A DNA stretch of 64,000 bases from NCBI GenBank assembly GCA_000004695.1, contig CM000153.2, forward strand, positions 544,001 to 608,000, written 5' to 3'. Below, piece after piece: positions 43,429-58,174 of the stretch. The position numbers and the translations under genes are program-made. The first letter of the stretch is position 1, and every line of letters begins with the position of its first letter. The notes under the pieces were generated by a model that saw only the letters and a list, made by a program, of their open reading frames with translations, was not told the DNA's origin and searched no databases. The stretch comes from Dictyostelium discoideum (Eukaryota).

Positions 43429-50000
<6,572 letters not shown>

Positions 50001-50407: not shown

Positions 50408-50664
50408 GCAATAAAATAACAATAAACTATTTATATTAAAATAAATAAAATAAAAAATAAAATAAAATAATGAAAAATGGATTTTTTTGAAAAAAAAAAA
50501 AAAAAAAAAAAAATCACCCCTCTTTTTTTTAATTGAAAGCGCGCCTTTTTTTTTTTTTTTAAAAAAAAATAAAAATTGGAAAATTTTTTTTTTTTAATAA
50601 ATATAATATTTTTTTGAACACAAAAAAACAAATAAATTGTATATATATATAAATAAGAACCAAA
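50001..50664. promoter_or_regulatory. Divergent intergenic region between the RCC1-repeat gene (-) and the KNL1-like gene (+)
   Basis: The two start codons face away from each other and the AT-rich spacer contains long A/T homopolymers. The regulatory role is inferred from the arrangement only. Confidence 0.35.
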
Positions 50665-50727
50665 ATGAGTAACAATAACTTATTCTCCAATGTATCAAAA
50701 CAACTAAGTTCAAACAATGGAACTACA

Positions 50728-50759
<32 letters not shown>

Positions 50760-51083
50760 AGGATATAGTTCAAGATTTTCAATAGCGTCCACACTTCCAA
50801 CCAATAAAAATTATAATCAAACCGAGAATTTAGATTTTCTCTCAAAAATGAGTAATACAAATAATAATAATAATAACAATAATAATAATGGTAATAATAA
50901 TAATAATAACAATAATAATGTAAATAATATCAATGAAAATAATACAGTTAATATAAATCAAATTATTGATAATTCAAGTAGTGCTAGGTAAGACATCTTA
51001 TATATACATATACATATATATATATACATATACATACATATATATATATATATATATATTTATGTATATATATATATATATAT

Positions 51084-51123
<40 letters not shown>

Positions 51124-52001
51124 GTATTTATTAAATAACTATTTTATTATGTTATCTAACTCACACACACATTCAATTACAGAAAAAGAAAGAATGTTAG
51201 AATGTCAATGGGAGGTAGAGTTAGTTTTGCAAATACAGTGGAAGTTAGATTATTTGAAAAGACACAACAAAATAATAGAAGGCCAAGTTTAAGAAATCCT
51301 TTTCCTTCTAATTTATCAAATACTGACTCTCAATCTTTAGAAACACCATCAAATACAACAACACCAAATCAAAATATAGTGGGAGTAGAAAATGAAAATG
51401 AAAATGAAAATAAAACAACTGATAGTATTGGTGCTTATACATTTAGTAGCATTAGTAGTATAAATAGTACAAATACATTATTTAGTAGTAATAGTGATAG
51501 TGGTAGTAGTGGTAATAATGATGATAAATTCTTTTTCAATAGAGATGACGATGAAAATGATAATAGCAATAATAGTAATAATAGTAATAATAATGAAGAA
51601 CAAGATCAAAAAACAATGGATTTCACACAAACCTATGGTAAAATATTTGTACCTTTTATAAAGGATGAAACTCAACCACTTAGAATTCATGATGCATCAA
51701 ATGATAGTGGTTTCACTGATGATGATAGTAATAGTAGTGGTAATAGTAGTGGAGGATCATTAGAACTAACGGAAAATGATGAACAAAGTTATTTAGATAG
51801 TTTACAAAATGATGATTCAAGAATCATTCAAACTCCATCATTACAAGCCATTTTAGAAGAAGCTGAATTCTTATTTTCAATTAAAAGTAAATCACCTTCA
51901 AAATCAAAAATTACTGAAATTAATAATAATAATAATAATAACAATAATGATGATGGAAATGAAAATAGTAATAAAAAAGAAGATAATGATATCATTGTAA
52001 C

Positions 52002-52059
<58 letters not shown>

Positions 52060-54407
52060 AATGATGATGATAATAATAAAAGTAACTATAATAATAAATC
52101 AATTGCAGATATGGATATTTCAAGATACCAATCAACTATAAATTCACCAATTCATAAGAAATCACGTCAATTATTAGATAGTTCAGTCGTTGGTGATGGT
52201 AAATTAACATCACTTGAAGATCTTTTGAAAGAGGATACTGAAGTTTTAGATTTTGATGGTGCTAATGATTATAAACCACCACCACCATCAACAACAACAC
52301 CAACAACAACACCAATGAAATCTTTATCAACACCACCATCTTCTTCTAAAATATTCCCAAGAATTTCAAATATTTTCCCAAATTCACCATTACCAAGTTT
52401 ACAAAATCTAAGAAAGAAAAATAGTAATAGTGGTGGTAATAGTAGTGAAGATGAAATTTTAACAAATGGAGATTTAGGTGAAATCATTAAAAACTTTTCA
52501 ACTCCAAAACTTAATCAACTTTATTCTGATGATCATAGTTTTGATGATCAAGATTTTAATATTGTAAATAATAATTATGATAAAACTGATGATGAAACTG
52601 ATGATAATAATATTAAAAAATTAAACAATAATAATAATAATAATAATAATAAAGACAATCAGAAAGAAAGTGAAGAAGAAGAAGATAATGAAGAAGAAGA
52701 TGAAGAAGAAGATGATGAAGAAGAAGAAGAAGAAGAAAATTATAATAATACAACAGTTGATAGATCAAGAATTTATCATCATAAGAATGGTACAGCAGGT
52801 ATTGGTGGTAGATTAAAAGAATTAGTAGAAGATGATGAAGATGGTGATATTTATGATGCCGAACAAAGAGATATGACATTAACTTTAGCTTTTGATAAAA
52901 TTATTGCAATGGCTAATAATAAAAATGATAATAATAATAATAATATTGAAAATAATAATCAATTATTTTCAAATAGTTTAACGACAACAACAACAACAAC
53001 CAATGAAAATGATTATTTTATTGATGAGAATAATCAAGATCAAAAAGATATGACAATTACAAAATCATTTGGTAAAATATTAGAAATGTATAATCAAACA
53101 CTTACTGATATGAAAGAAATGTCAATTTCAACTCAAAATATTGATAAACTTTTAGAGAATAATAATAATCATAATAATAATCATCATAAAGGTATTTGGG
53201 ATAATGATAATATGATAGCAGATCCGAATATTACAAATAATCTTAGAGATTTATATGAAAATACTACAGTAACTCGTAATTTAAAAACTTTAGTACAAGG
53301 TAGAAAATCTATGATACCAATACCATCTTATTCAAAGGATAGGGATAATAATAATAATAATAATACTGGTACATTTAGATTCTCTGTTGCAAGAAATCCA
53401 ATGACACCATCACATGGTGGTGCTGGTGGTCAAATGATACCAACCAATAGTGGTGGTAGTAATACAATGAATTTAAATAAAAAGCTATGGAATCCTCAAG
53501 CTGATGTAACTCATAATTTAAAGAGTCTATACACAAATAACACAACCACAATGAATTTTGGTAGATATTCAATTGCAAATCCATCAAATTATTATAATAA
53601 CACAGCACCAATTAGCACTATTAAAAAGGATCAAGTTTTGGACATGTCATTCACTCAATCCTATGGAGTATTTTCAAAATATCAACCATTCTCAACTACT
53701 AAATCACCATTTGTTAATCCAAAATCTCATCAAAAACAACAACAACCACAACAACCACAACTTCCACAACCACAACAACAATTATTATTAGAATCAAGTG
53801 TTACTAGTATTAAAACTAATGAATCACATTATCCAAGTTCAAATGAAGATAGTTTAGATAATCCATTAATTGAATCAACTGCTTCAAACGTAACAATGGA
53901 ACAACGTAACCTTTTATCAAATTTCATTCTACAACAACCACAACCACAACCACAATCAATACAACAACCACAACTACAACAACCACAACCACAACCACAA
54001 CCACAATCAATACAACCACAACAACAATCACAACTTCAACAATCCCAATCAATACAAAAGCAACAACAATCTAATACTAACAAACAAGTTACACAAGAAT
54101 TTAATTTAACATCAAGTCAAATTCAACAATCACAATATCAATCTACAATTGCCAATAATAATAATAATAATACTACAAATATATTAAGCACTAACAATAA
54201 TTTTAATCAAACCACAAATACTAATAATTTTGGAACATCAATGGTTACTCGAATTCAAGAGATATCAACATCAACAAGAAAACAATATACACATTCACCT
54301 TCTTTAATTGAAAGCGATATTGGTTTTGACTATGGAAGAATTAATTTTGAACAAAAAGAAAAACAAATCAACACCATCACTAATAATAATAATAATAATA
54401 ATATTAA

Positions 54408-54500
<93 letters not shown>

Positions 54501-56163
54501 CACTACAACTAACACTACTACAAGCAATAATAATACAAACAACAATATCAACAATACTGATAATATTCTTGCCAATGTTTTTGATAATAAAAAATTACCA
54601 CAAAAGCAACAACAACAACAACAACACCAACAAAAACAACAACAACAACAACAAAATACAACTATAAATACACAAAAAATTACAATTCCAAATCATAGTA
54701 GTAATAATACACATACTACTAATATGCAACTTTATATTAATCATCCAATGGGTGAAATATCAGAGAATATTTATAATAGAGTTGGTGTTGAATATAATTC
54801 TTCATTTAAAGAGAGTCATATTAATTATCATCATCAACCAATATCTTCAATGGATTTAGAAGATCTTCAAGAGAAAATTGTTAATAATAATAATAATAAT
54901 AGTCAAAATAGTATTAATCAAAATAATTCAATAATTGCAACTAATATACCAATTGTTGGATGTGGAATAATTAAAAAGATAACATTGCATGAATTCCTCA
55001 GTTTGGCACATTGTCAATTTTTAGAAGATAAAGCATCTAGACGTGATTCAATGATTGGTATGCAATTTACAAATGTATTAGACGATCAAGATGATAATAC
55101 CAACAACAATAATAATAATAACAATGATATTGAATTTAAAAAGAGAATTAATAGTATTTATAATAATCAACGTCATTTAGTTATTTTAAAGAAAGGTTAT
55201 GAAGAATTAAAAACTATGGTATCAAATATAAAAGAGAGTAATCGTATGGAAGAGGAGAAAATCAATCAAAAGAATCCACCAATCTTTTCAAATATTCAAT
55301 TGAGTAGTGAAGAACTTTATGCAAAACAACGTCTATTAAAGAATATTAAATCATTTGCAAAACAAAAAGCACAATTGGCCTATAATGAATGGAGAAATCA
55401 ATTGGAAATTAAAATTTATGATGAAATTTTAAATTCAACTCATGAATTAATTAGTAGTGAAACTATATTAAATGAAAGTAAAAAATGGATTGAAAGAAGT
55501 ATTAAAACAATTGATGAAAATATAAATTATTTAATTGATATTGAAAAAGTTATAAAATTACAAAATCATCAATTAAATTCACCAATTTTATTATCATCAA
55601 ATAGTAATGCTAGTGGTAATAATAATAAACAACAACAACCAAATAAAGAAGAACAAGAACGTGAATTATTATCAATTTCTGAATTTACTAAACAATTTTC
55701 ATTATTTTTCAATTGGACACCGATTCAAATTTCAGAGAAATTAATATTATTAGAATTTAATGGTAAATTTTCAATCTCTTTAATTTTAAATCAAAATGAA
55801 ATTCAATCTTCAAATTTAATATTATTTTCAAATATTTCAAAGGTAAGTAATTATAAATATATATTAATTAAACTTAACTTACAATTTATTAACATTTTAA
55901 TTTTTTTTTTTTAAAAAAATAGTTTGAAATTGATTTAATAAATAAATCAAATATTAATAAAATGGTGAAAAGTATAAAAAATATTAAACAATTAAGTATT
56001 ATAATACAAGAGATTAGTTTTAGAATGTCAAGATTAAATACTTTAATTAAAGAAATTCAACAATTAGAAAGACTTTATAATATTAATAAAAATCAAGAAT
56101 CAATTTCAACAAATGTTAAAAATAAATATTCATTTAAATCAAATAATTTTAATGAAATATCAA

Positions 56164-56195
<32 letters not shown>

Positions 56196-56480
56196 GTAGG
56201 AGAAGAAGGAAAAGAAGAAAATCAATATGTTGATATTAAAGTTCAAATTTCAAATGTTGAAAGTTTAAAGAAAATTGTATTAAATCTTCAAATACCATTA
56301 TTATATCCAAAAGGTAAAATTGAATATGCTTTCACTACAATCATTGGATTTAATAATGGTAATACTCAAGGTTTCATTAATCAAATTAATCAAATTATTA
56401 CAAGTGAATTAAAAAGTAATCAAAGTAAATCAAAATTAACAAAAGTTTTACAATCATTAGAAATTTTAATTTCTTATTAA
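50665..56480 (+). CDS. KNL1/Spc105-like kinetochore scaffold candidate, about 1846 aa, three exons (50665..50987, 51183..55842, 55923..56480), with an N-terminal RVSF PP1-docking motif and four MELT-like repeats
   Basis: The start is aaccaaaATGAGT and exon 1 ends AG|GTAAGA. The 195-bp intron holds a (TA)/(CATA) microsatellite and ends ttacag|A. Exon 2 begins [27 protein letters not shown]; compare the KNL1 N-terminal basic patch plus RRVSF. There are four spaced repeats: [17 protein letters not shown] (about 51616), [15 protein letters not shown] (about 52870), [15 protein letters not shown] (about 53047) and [15 protein letters not shown] (about 53641). The remainder is mainly low-complexity Asn/Gln/acidic sequence, with a structured C-terminal part (..[39 protein letters not shown]..). 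Exon 2 ends AAG|GTAAGT and the acceptor aaaatag|TTT leads to [21 protein letters not shown]. Confidence 0.55.
50999..51125. repeat. (TA)n/(CATA)n compound microsatellite in intron 1 of the KNL1-like gene
   Basis: tatatacatatacatatatatata.. seen directly. Confidence 0.9.
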
Positions 56481-56576: not shown

Positions 56577-58174
56577 TTATAATTTTGAATTAATGAAATT
56601 TGAAAGTGATAAATTATTATTATTATTATTATTATTGTTATTATTAATAGTATTATTATTATTAATACCACCAATTGGTAAAGTTGTTACAGTTGAATTA
56701 TCAGATAATGATTTTTTATATTTATCTTGATATAATTCAATATAAGATTTTTGAAGATAATTATTTTCCAAACCTAATTTTTTACCAGCTTCTTGAACAG
56801 AGGTTGCATCGAAACCTTTGATTTGAACAAATGTTTGACCCAATTCTTCAAGTTCATCATAAGAGATAATGATTTTACCATCTTTAAAGATTGTTGATTT
56901 TCTATGAATGATTGCAACCATTTGATAGCCCAAGGACATTAGACCACCCAACATATTGACACCAACGACGAAATCGACACGTGGTGAAATGATGAAAGGA
57001 CCTTCTTTAATCTCCTCACTAAACATAATGCTATATTGACCATCGGCATTACGAACACGAATCCAATCACATGATGATGAGTTTGCAAAAGTAGTATTTG
57101 GTGGAATTAAATAGATGTCATAGTAACGTGCTGTGTTCTCTTGAATGGTGGATTTATTTAATACTGAATGAATCATGTCCACTGTAACACCTTGTTTAAC
57201 AGATTTTAAAATATAGATTGGATTTAATAGACCACCGAATGGGTTAAACTTATTGACCACTTGAATCTCGGCCAATTGTAAATCAGGCTCAATGAATGCT
57301 TTATACATTGGGTAAACGGTATCGGTGATTTGTTGTAGTGATTCGTGTGGTTGTTGACCAGTTCTATGAACATCTCTAAAAATACGTTTAATCAAATCGA
57401 AATGAACACCACCAGAGATCGATACTCTTAAATCCAATAAATGACGAATCTCTTCATGTAATGCATAGATACCTTCAATTAATAATACTTTGGATTCTGG
57501 TGGTTGTACTCTCTTGTATGCGTATCTACCACTCTTTGTAAAATCATATAATGGTAAATCAGTTGGTTTATTGCTAATTAAATCACTAATATTCTTTTTT
57601 AATAATTCAAAATCAACTAATCTATAATCATCATAATTCTCTTCAATAATTTGTCTTGAACTATCTAAATAATTATCTAATGAAATTAAACTAAAAAATT
57701 TTATAATTATAATTATTAGAAATTTTATTATCTCTTTCAAAAAATATATATTTTGTACATACATTGATTTTGGTAAAACAGAAACGATTTTTTGAGCAAT
57801 TGAAGTTTTACCAGCTCCTGATGGTCCAGCAATACCAACTACGATTACACTACCTTGACTCTTTTTTCTTATTGATTGAATTGCTCTAACTGCTAAAAAG
57901 AAACCTTTATCAAATGACTAGTAAATAAAGTAAATGAAAAAAAAATTAGATAAACTTTATTTATTTTCACACTATTATCAAAATAAAATAAAAAAAAAAA
58001 AAATAATAAAAAAATTATTTCTTCTTTTTTTATTTTTTTATTTTTCATAATAAAATAAATAATAATAATAATAAAAGTTTTTAATATACTTACAAGTGTA
58101 TCTTTTAATGGTTTAATTGTATATCTATCATCTTTATCAGGTCTTGGAATAACCTCAATCTCTAAACTGTCCAT
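56577..58174 (-). CDS. Uridine kinase/phosphoribulokinase-family P-loop kinase-like protein with a long C-terminal extension (possibly a CYTH-type domain), about 449 aa, three exons (58094..58174, 57763..57917, 56577..57690)
   Basis: Exon 1 is MDSLEIEVIPRPDKDDRYTIKPLKDTL, ending CTT|GTAAGT. Exon 2 is SFDKGFFLAVRAIQSIRKKSQGSVIVVGIAGPSGAGKTSIAQKIVSVLPKS; it has the G(A/G)xxSGKT(S/T) P-loop typical of uridine kinases and ends AT|GTATGT. Exon 3 starts I|LISLDNYLDSS..LPLYDFTKSGRYAYKRV..VLLIEGIYALHEEIRHLLDLRVSISGGVHFDLIKRIFRD, following the uridine-kinase LD.FY / D....GR.. pattern. A roughly 230-aa C-terminal extension follows. Confidence 0.6.

Follow-up and report, generated by a model that had tools for sequence, protein, structure and literature searches.

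The Dictyostelium discoideum orthologue of the kinetochore scaffold KNL1/Spc105/Spc7 and its MELT-like modules

Within a 64,000-nucleotide window of Dictyostelium discoideum contig CM000153.2 (positions 544,001 to 608,000), a three-exon gene on the + strand encodes, with a probability that we put at about 93%, the single-copy orthologue of the outer-kinetochore scaffold KNL1/Spc105/Spc7. An earlier note, made from the DNA letters, had proposed this identity, and a match to the Spc7 domain and a C-terminal profile that finds the RWD structures of human KNL1, together with an RVSF motif and MELT-like modules, bear it out. What did not stand is the novelty that the note implied. The KNL1 identity is already known: the translation is 100% identical (1846/1846 residues) to the curated entry that van Hooff et al. 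(2017, Dataset EV1) list as "Dictyostelium_discoideum_DDIS000748_Knl1", and M-S/T-Φ-T variants followed by Gly or hydrophobic sites have been documented as recurrent. The dictyBase entry of the gene is presumably DDB_G0283381, which a 2026 review of Dictyostelium centromeres gives as an uncharacterised Knl1/Spc7/Spc105. For D. discoideum, the 2017 dataset also lists Bub3, MadBub, Mps1, Mis12, Dsn1, Nnf1, Nsl1 and Zwint-1; the authors of the 2026 review found no Mis12-complex orthologues in Dictyostelium, a statement that conflicts with that dataset.

The three exons (Table 1) join in frame into an 1846-residue protein with a single terminal stop, close to the length of about 1,850 residues first estimated, and the RVSF segment is retained in this structure, as it is in the published protein. 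Splicing is required, since in-frame stops immediately 5′ of exon 2 (51157) and exon 3 (55920) would otherwise end translation. The GC content is 9–13% in the introns versus 19–25% in the exons, and the residues across both junctions are continuous in the orthologues (SSSA-R-KRKN at the first; NISK|FEID at the second, compared with TKFES or NTFES in the others).

Table 1. Layout of the D. discoideum KNL1 gene and its protein; nucleotide positions are those of the window.
Feature	Nucleotides	Residues	Strand	Description
Exon 1	50665–50987	1–107 plus 2 nt	+	Asn-rich N-terminus; ATG after in-frame stop at 50650
Conserved ENLDYL block in exon 1	50812–50844	50–60	+	Kept, like the N-terminus, in orthologues
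Intron 1	50988–51182			195 nt, GT..AG, 12.8% GC, mostly (TA)n tract; donor GTAAGA starts at 50988
Exon 2	51183–55842	108–1661	+	Disordered middle, Spc7 coiled-coil domain, first half of RWD-N
Basic patch and predicted PP1-docking block	51184–51261	109–134	+	Kept in 8/8 dictyostelids; RVSF core 51217–51228
Module 1	51607–51684	250–275	+	Canonical M-D-F-T MELT-like motif (MDFT at aa 253), long conserved tail; same position in 8/8 species
Fifth MELT-pattern site	52105–52167	416–436	+	M-D-I-S, then conserved SP-x-HKK motif
Module 2	52861–52914	668–685	+	DM[ST]ΦT variant (M-T-L-T), D at +4 instead of the usual G; same position in 8/8 species
Module 3	53035–53091	726–744	+	M-T-I-T; same position in 8/8 species
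Module 4	53629–53682	924–941	+	M-S-F-T; counterparts only in P. violaceum, T. lacteum and P0003, after ITHNL motif
Spc7 domain	54973–55527	1372–1556	+	Conserved coiled-coil region of KNL1/Spc105/Spc7; Pfam PF08317
RWD-N, exon-2 part	55666–55842	1603–1661	+	Holds invariant Trp, which aligns with human LSEW in the 4NF9/4NFA profile alignment
Intron 2	55843–55922			80 nt, GT..AG, 8.7% GC
Exon 3	55923–56480	1662–1846 plus stop	+	RWD-N helices, RWD-C
RWD-N, exon-3 part	55923–56084	1662–1715	+
RWD-C	from about 56226	from about 1763	+	Invariant YP at aa 1789–1790

The C-terminal region carries the family assignment. Pfam Spc7 (PF08317) scores 45.5 bits (E = 7.1e-12; cut-off, 34.5 bits), and the same domain was found in 6/6 dictyostelid orthologues scanned. 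A profile built from eight dictyostelid C-termini, D. discoideum included, matches human KNL1 with low bias and across both RWD domains (8Q5H_K, E = 4.8e-8; 4NF9, 1.9e-7; 4NFA, 2.7e-6), and yeast Spc105 marginally (E = 0.008). The tandem RWD arrangement (Petrovic et al., 2014; PDB 4NF9) is thus recovered by the profile, which is the sole support for RWD-N, and Pfam Knl1_RWD_C scores above its cut-off in the homologous stretch of the Tieghemostelium lacteum orthologue. Used on its own, the D. discoideum sequence finds no human KNL1 structure in the PDB, and a Pfam scan of the full-length protein gave no matches, probably because of the composition-bias filter. A structural model of the RWD region, which leaves the exon-2 half of RWD-N outside, is of moderate confidence (pLDDT 68), and its Foldseek E values are weak (0.02–0.2). 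The KNL1 homology and RWD-like fold that had been expected at the C-terminus are upheld by the Spc7 score and the eight-sequence profile.

An exhaustive search returned one match per dictyostelid species and hence a single orthologue per genome. The dictyostelid orthologues include those of T. lacteum (KYQ89052.1), P. violaceum (KAF2070252.1), A. subglobosum (XP_012760068.1), C. fasciculata (XP_004359554.1), P. pallidum (PPAL006832) and S. polycarpum. These are 27–39% identical to the D. discoideum protein over the C-terminal region, with the conserved blocks the same in set and order and with three to five modules each. At 1846 residues the D. discoideum protein is the longest (1002–1476 residues in the others) because its low-complexity spacers have expanded. 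The database names vary between ‘Spc7 domain-containing’, ‘hypothetical’ and ‘mediator complex subunit 26’, the last of which suggests a different reading, namely that the gene encodes the Mediator subunit Med26. We regard this as very improbable. It draws on the name of T. lacteum KYQ89052.1 (‘putative mediator complex subunit 26’), on a weak Pfam Med15_C match to the final 80 residues (E = 7e-5; 23.5 bits, cut-off 23.9 bits) and on a D. discoideum Med26 that Bourbon (2008) reports from PSI-BLAST and that may be another gene; the hallmark of Med26 according to Bourbon is an N-terminal TFIIS-I/LW domain (Pfam Med26/TFIIS_N), and no Pfam TFIIS-N/Med26 domain was found in any segment of the protein, in six dictyostelid orthologues or in the more distant P0007, all of this against a background of Spc7 and KNL1-RWD matches instead. 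KYQ89052.1 is probably mislabelled, and, dictyostelid names being transferred by homology, the Mediator label could therefore spread through annotations.

At the other end of the protein, exon 2 opens, as the earlier note had read it, with a basic patch (RKRKNVR) and directly after it an RVSF-bearing stretch (aa 118–129), the arrangement found in KNL1/Spc105/Spc7 proteins. The block resembles human RRVSFADTIKVF / RRVSFADTIKV almost residue for residue, and it matches the [KR]RVSFA common to the KNL1s of human, fungi, microsporidia and Thecamonas. An N-terminal RVSF ([KR]-[VI]-x-[FW]) next to a basic patch is a feature of family membership and, judged by its sequence, a predicted PP1-docking site. 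For a canonical SILK ([GS]-I-L-[KR]) upstream of it, there is no [GS]ILK match in the protein; a loose R-x-S-I-[AD] is present (SSRFSIAST, aa 35–43), but the eight-species alignment recovers no conserved block there.

All four modules quoted in the earlier note are present (starting at aa 252, 670, 729 and 927), and they lie far above chance: the pattern M[DEST][ILFMV]T..[FYL][GD] occurs four times against 0.00175 expected, and 0 of 20,000 composition-preserving shuffles reached four. Module 3 comes closest to DM[ST]ΦT[QK]S[LF]G[KR]I[LI], the dictyostelid consensus. Conservation among dictyostelids, which the earlier note had named as a check, holds for modules 1–3 in 7/7 other orthologues examined and for module 4 in three, and A. 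subglobosum has a literal MELT at the position of module 1. A fifth site, overlooked in the first reading (ADMDIS, aa 416–421, with MDIS at aa 418), fits the strict MELT pattern and occurs also in the T. lacteum, C. fasciculata, A. subglobosum and P0003 orthologues, so that the disordered middle contains at least one M-[ED]-[ILVMF]-[ST] motif, in the form of MDFT (module 1) and MDIS. With four modules and one MDIS site detected, the repeat count is low, as had been suggested. A long protein rich in Asn, Asp and Gln might produce such motifs by chance and without specific function, and this one does abound in homopolymer tracts and trinucleotide repeats, in a setting where short RVxF-like patterns are common; yet the shuffles never gave four modules, each motif sits inside a block kept across eight species, unlike the low-complexity spacers, and the domain matches exceed curated thresholds. 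We gave this reading next to no credence and rejected it, as conservation and domain matches already refute it.

Whether modules 2–4 are MELT repeats is a finer question. They depart from strict M-[ED]-Φ-[ST], with Ser/Thr and no acidic residue at −2, and Pfam MELT_2 stays below threshold on every module (best E = 0.12, module 1; no match on modules 2–4). The protein could be KNL1 and yet use modules 2–4 as another dictyostelid-specific short linear motif, for example for docking a checkpoint or motor adaptor, leaving module 1 and/or MDIS as the only true MELT. This we consider unlikely, although several observations lend it some weight: modules 2–4 lack the acidic −2 residue, which in the yeast structure lies opposite Bub3 R242, MELT_2 is silent on these modules, and the conserved tail S-Φ-G-K-I-Φ extends past the known Bub3 contacts. 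Set against these are the exact register that module 1 shares (Met, Φ, Thr, +3 aromatic, +4 Gly, +5 basic), the intact reader residues of Bub3, and the view of Tromer et al. (2015), who count DMSLT/MSLT, the class that modules 2–4 fit, as recurrent MELT variants. The description of the shared core as a degenerate MELT is supported by this common register and by the fit of modules 2–4 to the DMSLT/MSLT variants rather than to the strict pattern.

Human KNL1 (CASC5; 4NF9/4NFA, 8PPR, 8Q5H) has the same order of parts: a basic patch with RVSF at the N-terminus, MELT-type repeats in a disordered middle, then a coiled coil and, at the C-terminus, tandem RWD domains. By contrast, D. discoideum has four or five modules detected and long Asn, Asp and Gln tracts; it is without a canonical SILK and has one KI-like candidate (the ITHNL repeat) that differs in spacing; and T-Ω and SHT are absent as such, the +2 Ser being kept and +3/+4 being [FYL]-G, not H-T. 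Elsewhere, the MELT repeat counts given in one cited paper are 31 in frog, 16 in zebrafish, and 1 and 21 in fungi. With fungal Spc105 (Saccharomyces cerevisiae) and Spc7 (Schizosaccharomyces pombe) the protein has in common a Spc7 domain above the Pfam gathering score, the RVSF, a small MELT number comparable to fungal counts, and a +3 aromatic after the phospho-Thr like that of yeast MELT2 (Phe175), whereas modules 2–4 have Ser/Thr in place of Glu/Asp at −2. The DMSLT/MSLT variants of Lepidoptera, a beetle and others share with the dictyostelid modules the Asp before Met and the Ser/Thr in place of the acidic −2 residue and, in the text of Tromer et al. (2015), MELT variants arose in parallel, with conserved downstream Gly/hydrophobic positions recurring; the dictyostelid form differs in its independent origin, in Amoebozoa. 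Of the suggested lineage-specific MELT variant, the tail S-[LF]-G-[KR]-I-[LI] stands as dictyostelid-specific as far as that text shows, whereas the DM[ST]ΦT form itself matches variants known elsewhere.

In the yeast Bub3–MELT structure (Primorac et al., 2013), the contacts described are a Met/Met pocket, R217 and R239 facing the phospho-Thr, R242 opposite the Glu, and K193/Y194 beneath the +3 Phe (MELT2 Phe175). In D. discoideum Bub3 all nine MELT-contact residues are either unchanged or conservatively substituted, and the module aromatic at +3 falls at the position contacted by K193/Y194. By analogy, in the module M-x-Φ-T-x-[ST]-[FYL]-G-[KR]-I-Φ, Met and Φ would fill the hydrophobic pocket of Bub3, the phospho-Thr would face its Arg/Lys pair, and the +3 aromatic would stack on its Lys–Tyr platform.

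From what is known of the family, the modules would dock Bub3–Bub1 once the invariant Thr is phosphorylated by Mps1 or a Polo-like kinase, the RVSF block would recruit PP1 and thereby silence the checkpoint, the basic patch beside it may touch microtubules, the Spc7 coiled coil would pair with a Zwint/Kre28-like partner, and the tandem RWD would anchor KNL1 to the Mis12 complex via Nsl1. Kinetochore localisation and binding of Bub3–Bub1, PP1, the Mis12 complex and Zwint are predicted, with indirect support from partner orthologues in D. discoideum and from the conserved phospho-MELT pocket residues in Bub3. The context D-x-[ST]-Φ fits the Polo-like kinase consensus. In modules 2–4, the −2 Ser/Thr in this context would, speculatively, supply a negative charge only after phosphorylation. 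One could extend this to a two-step phospho-switch, in which the −2 Ser/Thr is phosphorylated first and faces the equivalent of Bub3 R242, and the strongly conserved [QK]-S-[LF]-G-[KR]-I-[LI] tail adds a second contact to the Lys–Tyr platform of Bub3 or to Bub1; we hold this proposal to be unlikely.

Little changes for the gene itself, which has been assigned as KNL1 since 2017. Of use for its future characterisation are a residue-level map of the conserved motifs (RVSF, five MELT-type sites and several further conserved blocks) and a structure-based reason for the aromatic that the modules carry at +3. The two-step switch, if true, would make checkpoint docking depend on two kinases per module.

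The three exons of the Dictyostelium KNL1 gene proposed in the earlier note (Table) join into a 5541-nt reading frame of 1846 residues with a single terminal stop, matching the expected length of roughly 1850 residues. Both introns (195 nt, 12.8% GC, and 80 nt, 8.7% GC; exons 19-25% GC) start with GTAAG and end with AG. In-frame stops lie directly upstream of exons 2 and 3 (at 51157 and 55920), and there is no ATG from 51157 to the conserved KRKN codons of exon 2; a continuous coding sequence is therefore obtained only via the proposed splicing. Programmatic comparison of the translation with 'Dictyostelium_discoideum_DDIS000748_Knl1' (Knl1.fa in Dataset EV1 of van Hooff et al. 2017, EMBO Rep, PMC5579357) revealed identity throughout all 1846 residues. 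Thus, the three-exon model, including both junctions, is the annotated one, and the KNL1 orthology of this gene has already been published. In a 2026 review on the centromeres of Dictyostelium, 'Knl1, Spc7, Spc105: DDB_G0283381' also appears as a candidate orthologue, yet to be characterised; putatively this is the same gene, because KNL1 is single-copy.

Of the two neighboring genes, one encodes a large protein in which RCC1 repeats occur seven times (E=3e-92) and may have an additional exon upstream, at 49353-50000; the other encodes a protein with uridine-kinase (PRK) and CYTH domains. No functional tie of either gene to KNL1 is evident. The KNL1 region itself is AT-rich and contains many trinucleotide repeats, as is usual for Dictyostelium, with long AAT, GAT, GAA and CAA arrays within the coding exons; the lengths of these arrays and of the tract in intron 1 are likely to differ between strains.

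Table. Features of the KNL1 gene and its surroundings; islands are those found by MAFFT alignment of eight dictyostelid sequences.
Feature	Nucleotides	Strand	Residues	Remarks
RCC1-repeat protein	43782-50000	-		
Exon 1	50665-50987	+		joined reading frame
Exon 2	51183-55842	+		joined reading frame
Exon 3	55923-56480	+		joined reading frame; 185 aa
Intron 1 tract	50999-51131			133 nt, (TA)n/(TATACA)-like, most of the intron
Poly-Asp	52002-52071			
Poly-Asn	54381-54497			~39 codons
Island			50-60	
RVSF block			108-129	overlaps island 109-134
Island, module 1 and long tail			246-277	module starts at 252; QQTM[DE][FL]T.T[YF]G[KR]IF[VL]P[FY][IV]KDE[IV]QPL
ADMDIS site	52105-52167		416-436	ADMDIS at 416-421
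Island				SP.HKK motif
Island	52384-52497		509-546	SP[IL]P[ST]L..L...E[ED][DE][ML]T(N)G[DN].[KG][ED].I (alignment form: SPIPTL..L...EED[ML]T.G)
Island	52768-52833		637-658	FH..NGT.G.GGRL..L
Island, module 2			668-685	module starts at 670
Island, module 3			726-744	module starts at 729
Second repeated motif, copy 1	53194-53256		779-799	
Second repeated motif, copy 2	53485-53532		876-891	
Island				[DN][IV]T[HN]NL[KN].L
Module 4				module starts at 927
Island	54232-54348		1125-1163	SM[VI]T...KQY..TPSF...DSF.YGK[IL]NF; looser: SM[VI]T...KQY..[ST]PS...[DE]..F.YG[KR][IL]NF
Island				SMMLEDL
Islands				Spc7 and RWD regions
PRK/CYTH protein	56577-57764	-		

A Pfam scan of the whole 1846-residue protein returned no match, for which the composition filter is the likeliest reason, and single-sequence phmmer against the PDB yielded only a poly-Asn tag artefact. 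The C-terminal 484 residues match Spc7 (PF08317; E=7e-12, 45.5 bits, curated cut-off 34.5). When the exon-2 portion of this region was used as query in an exhaustive phmmer search, seven proteins were found: six dictyostelid orthologues of 1002-1476 aa (Tieghemostelium lacteum, Polysphondylium violaceum, Acytostelium subglobosum, Cavenderia fasciculata, Synstelium polycarpum and one EukProt entry) and, more distant, a Logan-assembly protein of 819 aa. Spc7 is over threshold in all six dictyostelid orthologues. A profile built from eight C-termini, including that of D. discoideum, and searched against all PDB sequences matched 8Q5H_K, which is human KNL1 within the KMN structure (E=4.8e-8), the crystal structures of the KNL1 tandem RWD, 4NF9 (E=1.9e-7) and 4NFA (E=2.7e-6), and yeast Spc105 (E=0.008). 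The alignment with human KNL1 spans both RWD domains and pairs an invariant Trp (FFNW in D. discoideum, LSEW in human) as well as an invariant Tyr-Pro. A coiled-coil artefact was ruled out as the source of the match, since the bias term is small and no long coiled coil is part of the 4NF9 construct. Modelled alone by single-sequence AlphaFold, exon 3 gave a poor, all-helical structure (pLDDT 62.6); with the eight-sequence alignment, the model (pLDDT 68, pTM 0.59) comprises helices, a disordered Ser-rich loop, three strands and two helices. Taken with the Spc7 and 4NF9/4NFA matches, this argues for the KNL1 homology and RWD-like fold expected of the C-terminal region.

The T. lacteum orthologue (KYQ89052.1) goes under the name 'putative mediator complex subunit 26', and a D. 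discoideum Med26 was predicted by PSI-BLAST (Bourbon 2008), which would make the gene and its orthologues a Mediator subunit instead. That same study regards the TFIIS-I/LW domain as the feature that marks Med26, but in the Pfam scan the T. lacteum protein harbors no Med26/TFIIS-N domain and does contain Spc7 together with Knl1_RWD_C (36.2 bits, threshold 27.8). On these domain assignments, the Mediator name is probably a misannotation transferred by homology, and the protein is better read as KNL1; if so transferred, the Med26 label from the 2008 prediction may be, or may once have been, attached to the D. discoideum gene.

The RVSF segment that had been described after a basic patch is present and lies in an island conserved across the eight dictyostelids, these being D. 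discoideum, the six orthologues above and P. pallidum, whose sequence comes from the published set. It is near the family-wide form: the human protein reads RRVSFADTIKVF here, and [KR]RVSFA recurs in the fungal, microsporidian and Thecamonas family members. The sequence SSRFSIAST was considered as a SILK motif and dropped, as it forms no conserved block.

All four MELT-like modules quoted in the earlier note were located in the translation. The pattern M[DEST][ILFMV]T..[FYL][GD] is expected 0.00175 times per shuffle of KNL1, and 0 of 20000 shuffles reached four. A fifth site, overlooked earlier, is ADMDIS, which fits the strict MELT pattern with a Ser acceptor and is common to four orthologues; after it comes a conserved [ST].I.SP.HKK, which may represent a CDK site together with an NLS-like basic patch. 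In the alignment of eight, conserved islands stand amid non-conserved low-complexity sequence. Modules 1-3 are positionally orthologous in 8/8 species, and three other species have counterparts of module 4 after the ITHNL motif, so that the modules are indeed present in other dictyostelids. At the module 1 position, the sequence is a literal MELT in A. subglobosum and MEFT in P. pallidum.

A second repeated motif, [IL]W-x(5-9)-[DN]-[IV]-T-[HN]-N-L-[KR]-x-L-Y, occurs in two copies, and in one or two copies in each dictyostelid orthologue. Its W-x(5)-[DN]-[IV]-T-[HN]-N-L-[KR]-x-L form was dropped as a KI-motif equivalent, its hydrophobic spacing being unlike that of human KI1/KI2. The strongly conserved block at residues 1125-1163 ends in a second RVxF-like sequence (GRINF in D. 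discoideum, GK[IL]NF in orthologues), a candidate for an additional PP1 site or a docking motif of another kind. The distant, KNL1-like 819-aa protein (3146-nt contig) contains KRRVSFA, DEDMQFT, IMELTNATGRIF and two RMSMGT.HGNILF repeats, which suggests that the M-x-Φ-T-x-x-x-G-x-I-Φ layout may extend more widely than dictyostelids.

The proposed lineage-specific MELT variant is likewise not new in kind. The text of Tromer, Snel & Kops (2015) describes DMSLT in place of ME[LF]T in Lepidoptera and in a beetle, parallel MELT-to-MSLT changes across eukaryotes, recurrent downstream glycines and hydrophobic stretches, and repeat numbers from 0 to about 40; Dictyostelium is absent from that text. 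The observation is confirmed and the KNL1 interpretation supported by Spc7, the RWD profile and motif conservation; novelty is nil for gene identity, published in 2017, and small for motif details.

In the yeast Bub3-Bub1-MELT(P) structure (Primorac et al. 2013), Met side chains at -3 and -1 (numbered from the invariant Thr, 0) occupy a pocket of F236, F238, W278 and R283; R217 and R239 face the phospho-Thr, R242 faces Glu at -2, and a +3 Phe stacks on K193, held by Y194. Exactly this +3 position is taken by the aromatic residue noticed earlier in the module of dictyostelids, M-x-Φ-T-x-[ST]-[FYL]-G. The S. cerevisiae Bub3 sequence used for alignment reproduces all nine residue identities at their published numbers, in support of its accuracy. 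Aligned with it, D. discoideum Bub3 from the 2017 dataset keeps all nine contact positions: K184, Y185, R207, Y224 (for F236), F226, K227 (for R239), R230, W266 and R271. D. discoideum Bub3 thus retains its reader pocket, the Arg expecting a negative charge at -2 included. In modules 2-4, this position is Ser/Thr in a D-x-[ST]-Φ context, which fits a Polo-like kinase site; priming phosphorylation there would be a reasonable though speculative idea.

From what is known of the family, the tandem RWD of D. discoideum KNL1 would bind the Mis12 complex. On that complex the sources conflict: the authors of the 2026 review report no orthologue, whereas the 2017 dataset holds D. discoideum entries for Mis12, Dsn1, Nnf1 and Nsl1, alongside Bub3, MadBub, Mps1 and Zwint-1. 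Likewise, a Zwint/Kre28-like protein would be the partner of the Spc7 coiled coil, PP1 that of the RVSF motif, and Bub3-Bub1 that of the phosphorylated modules.
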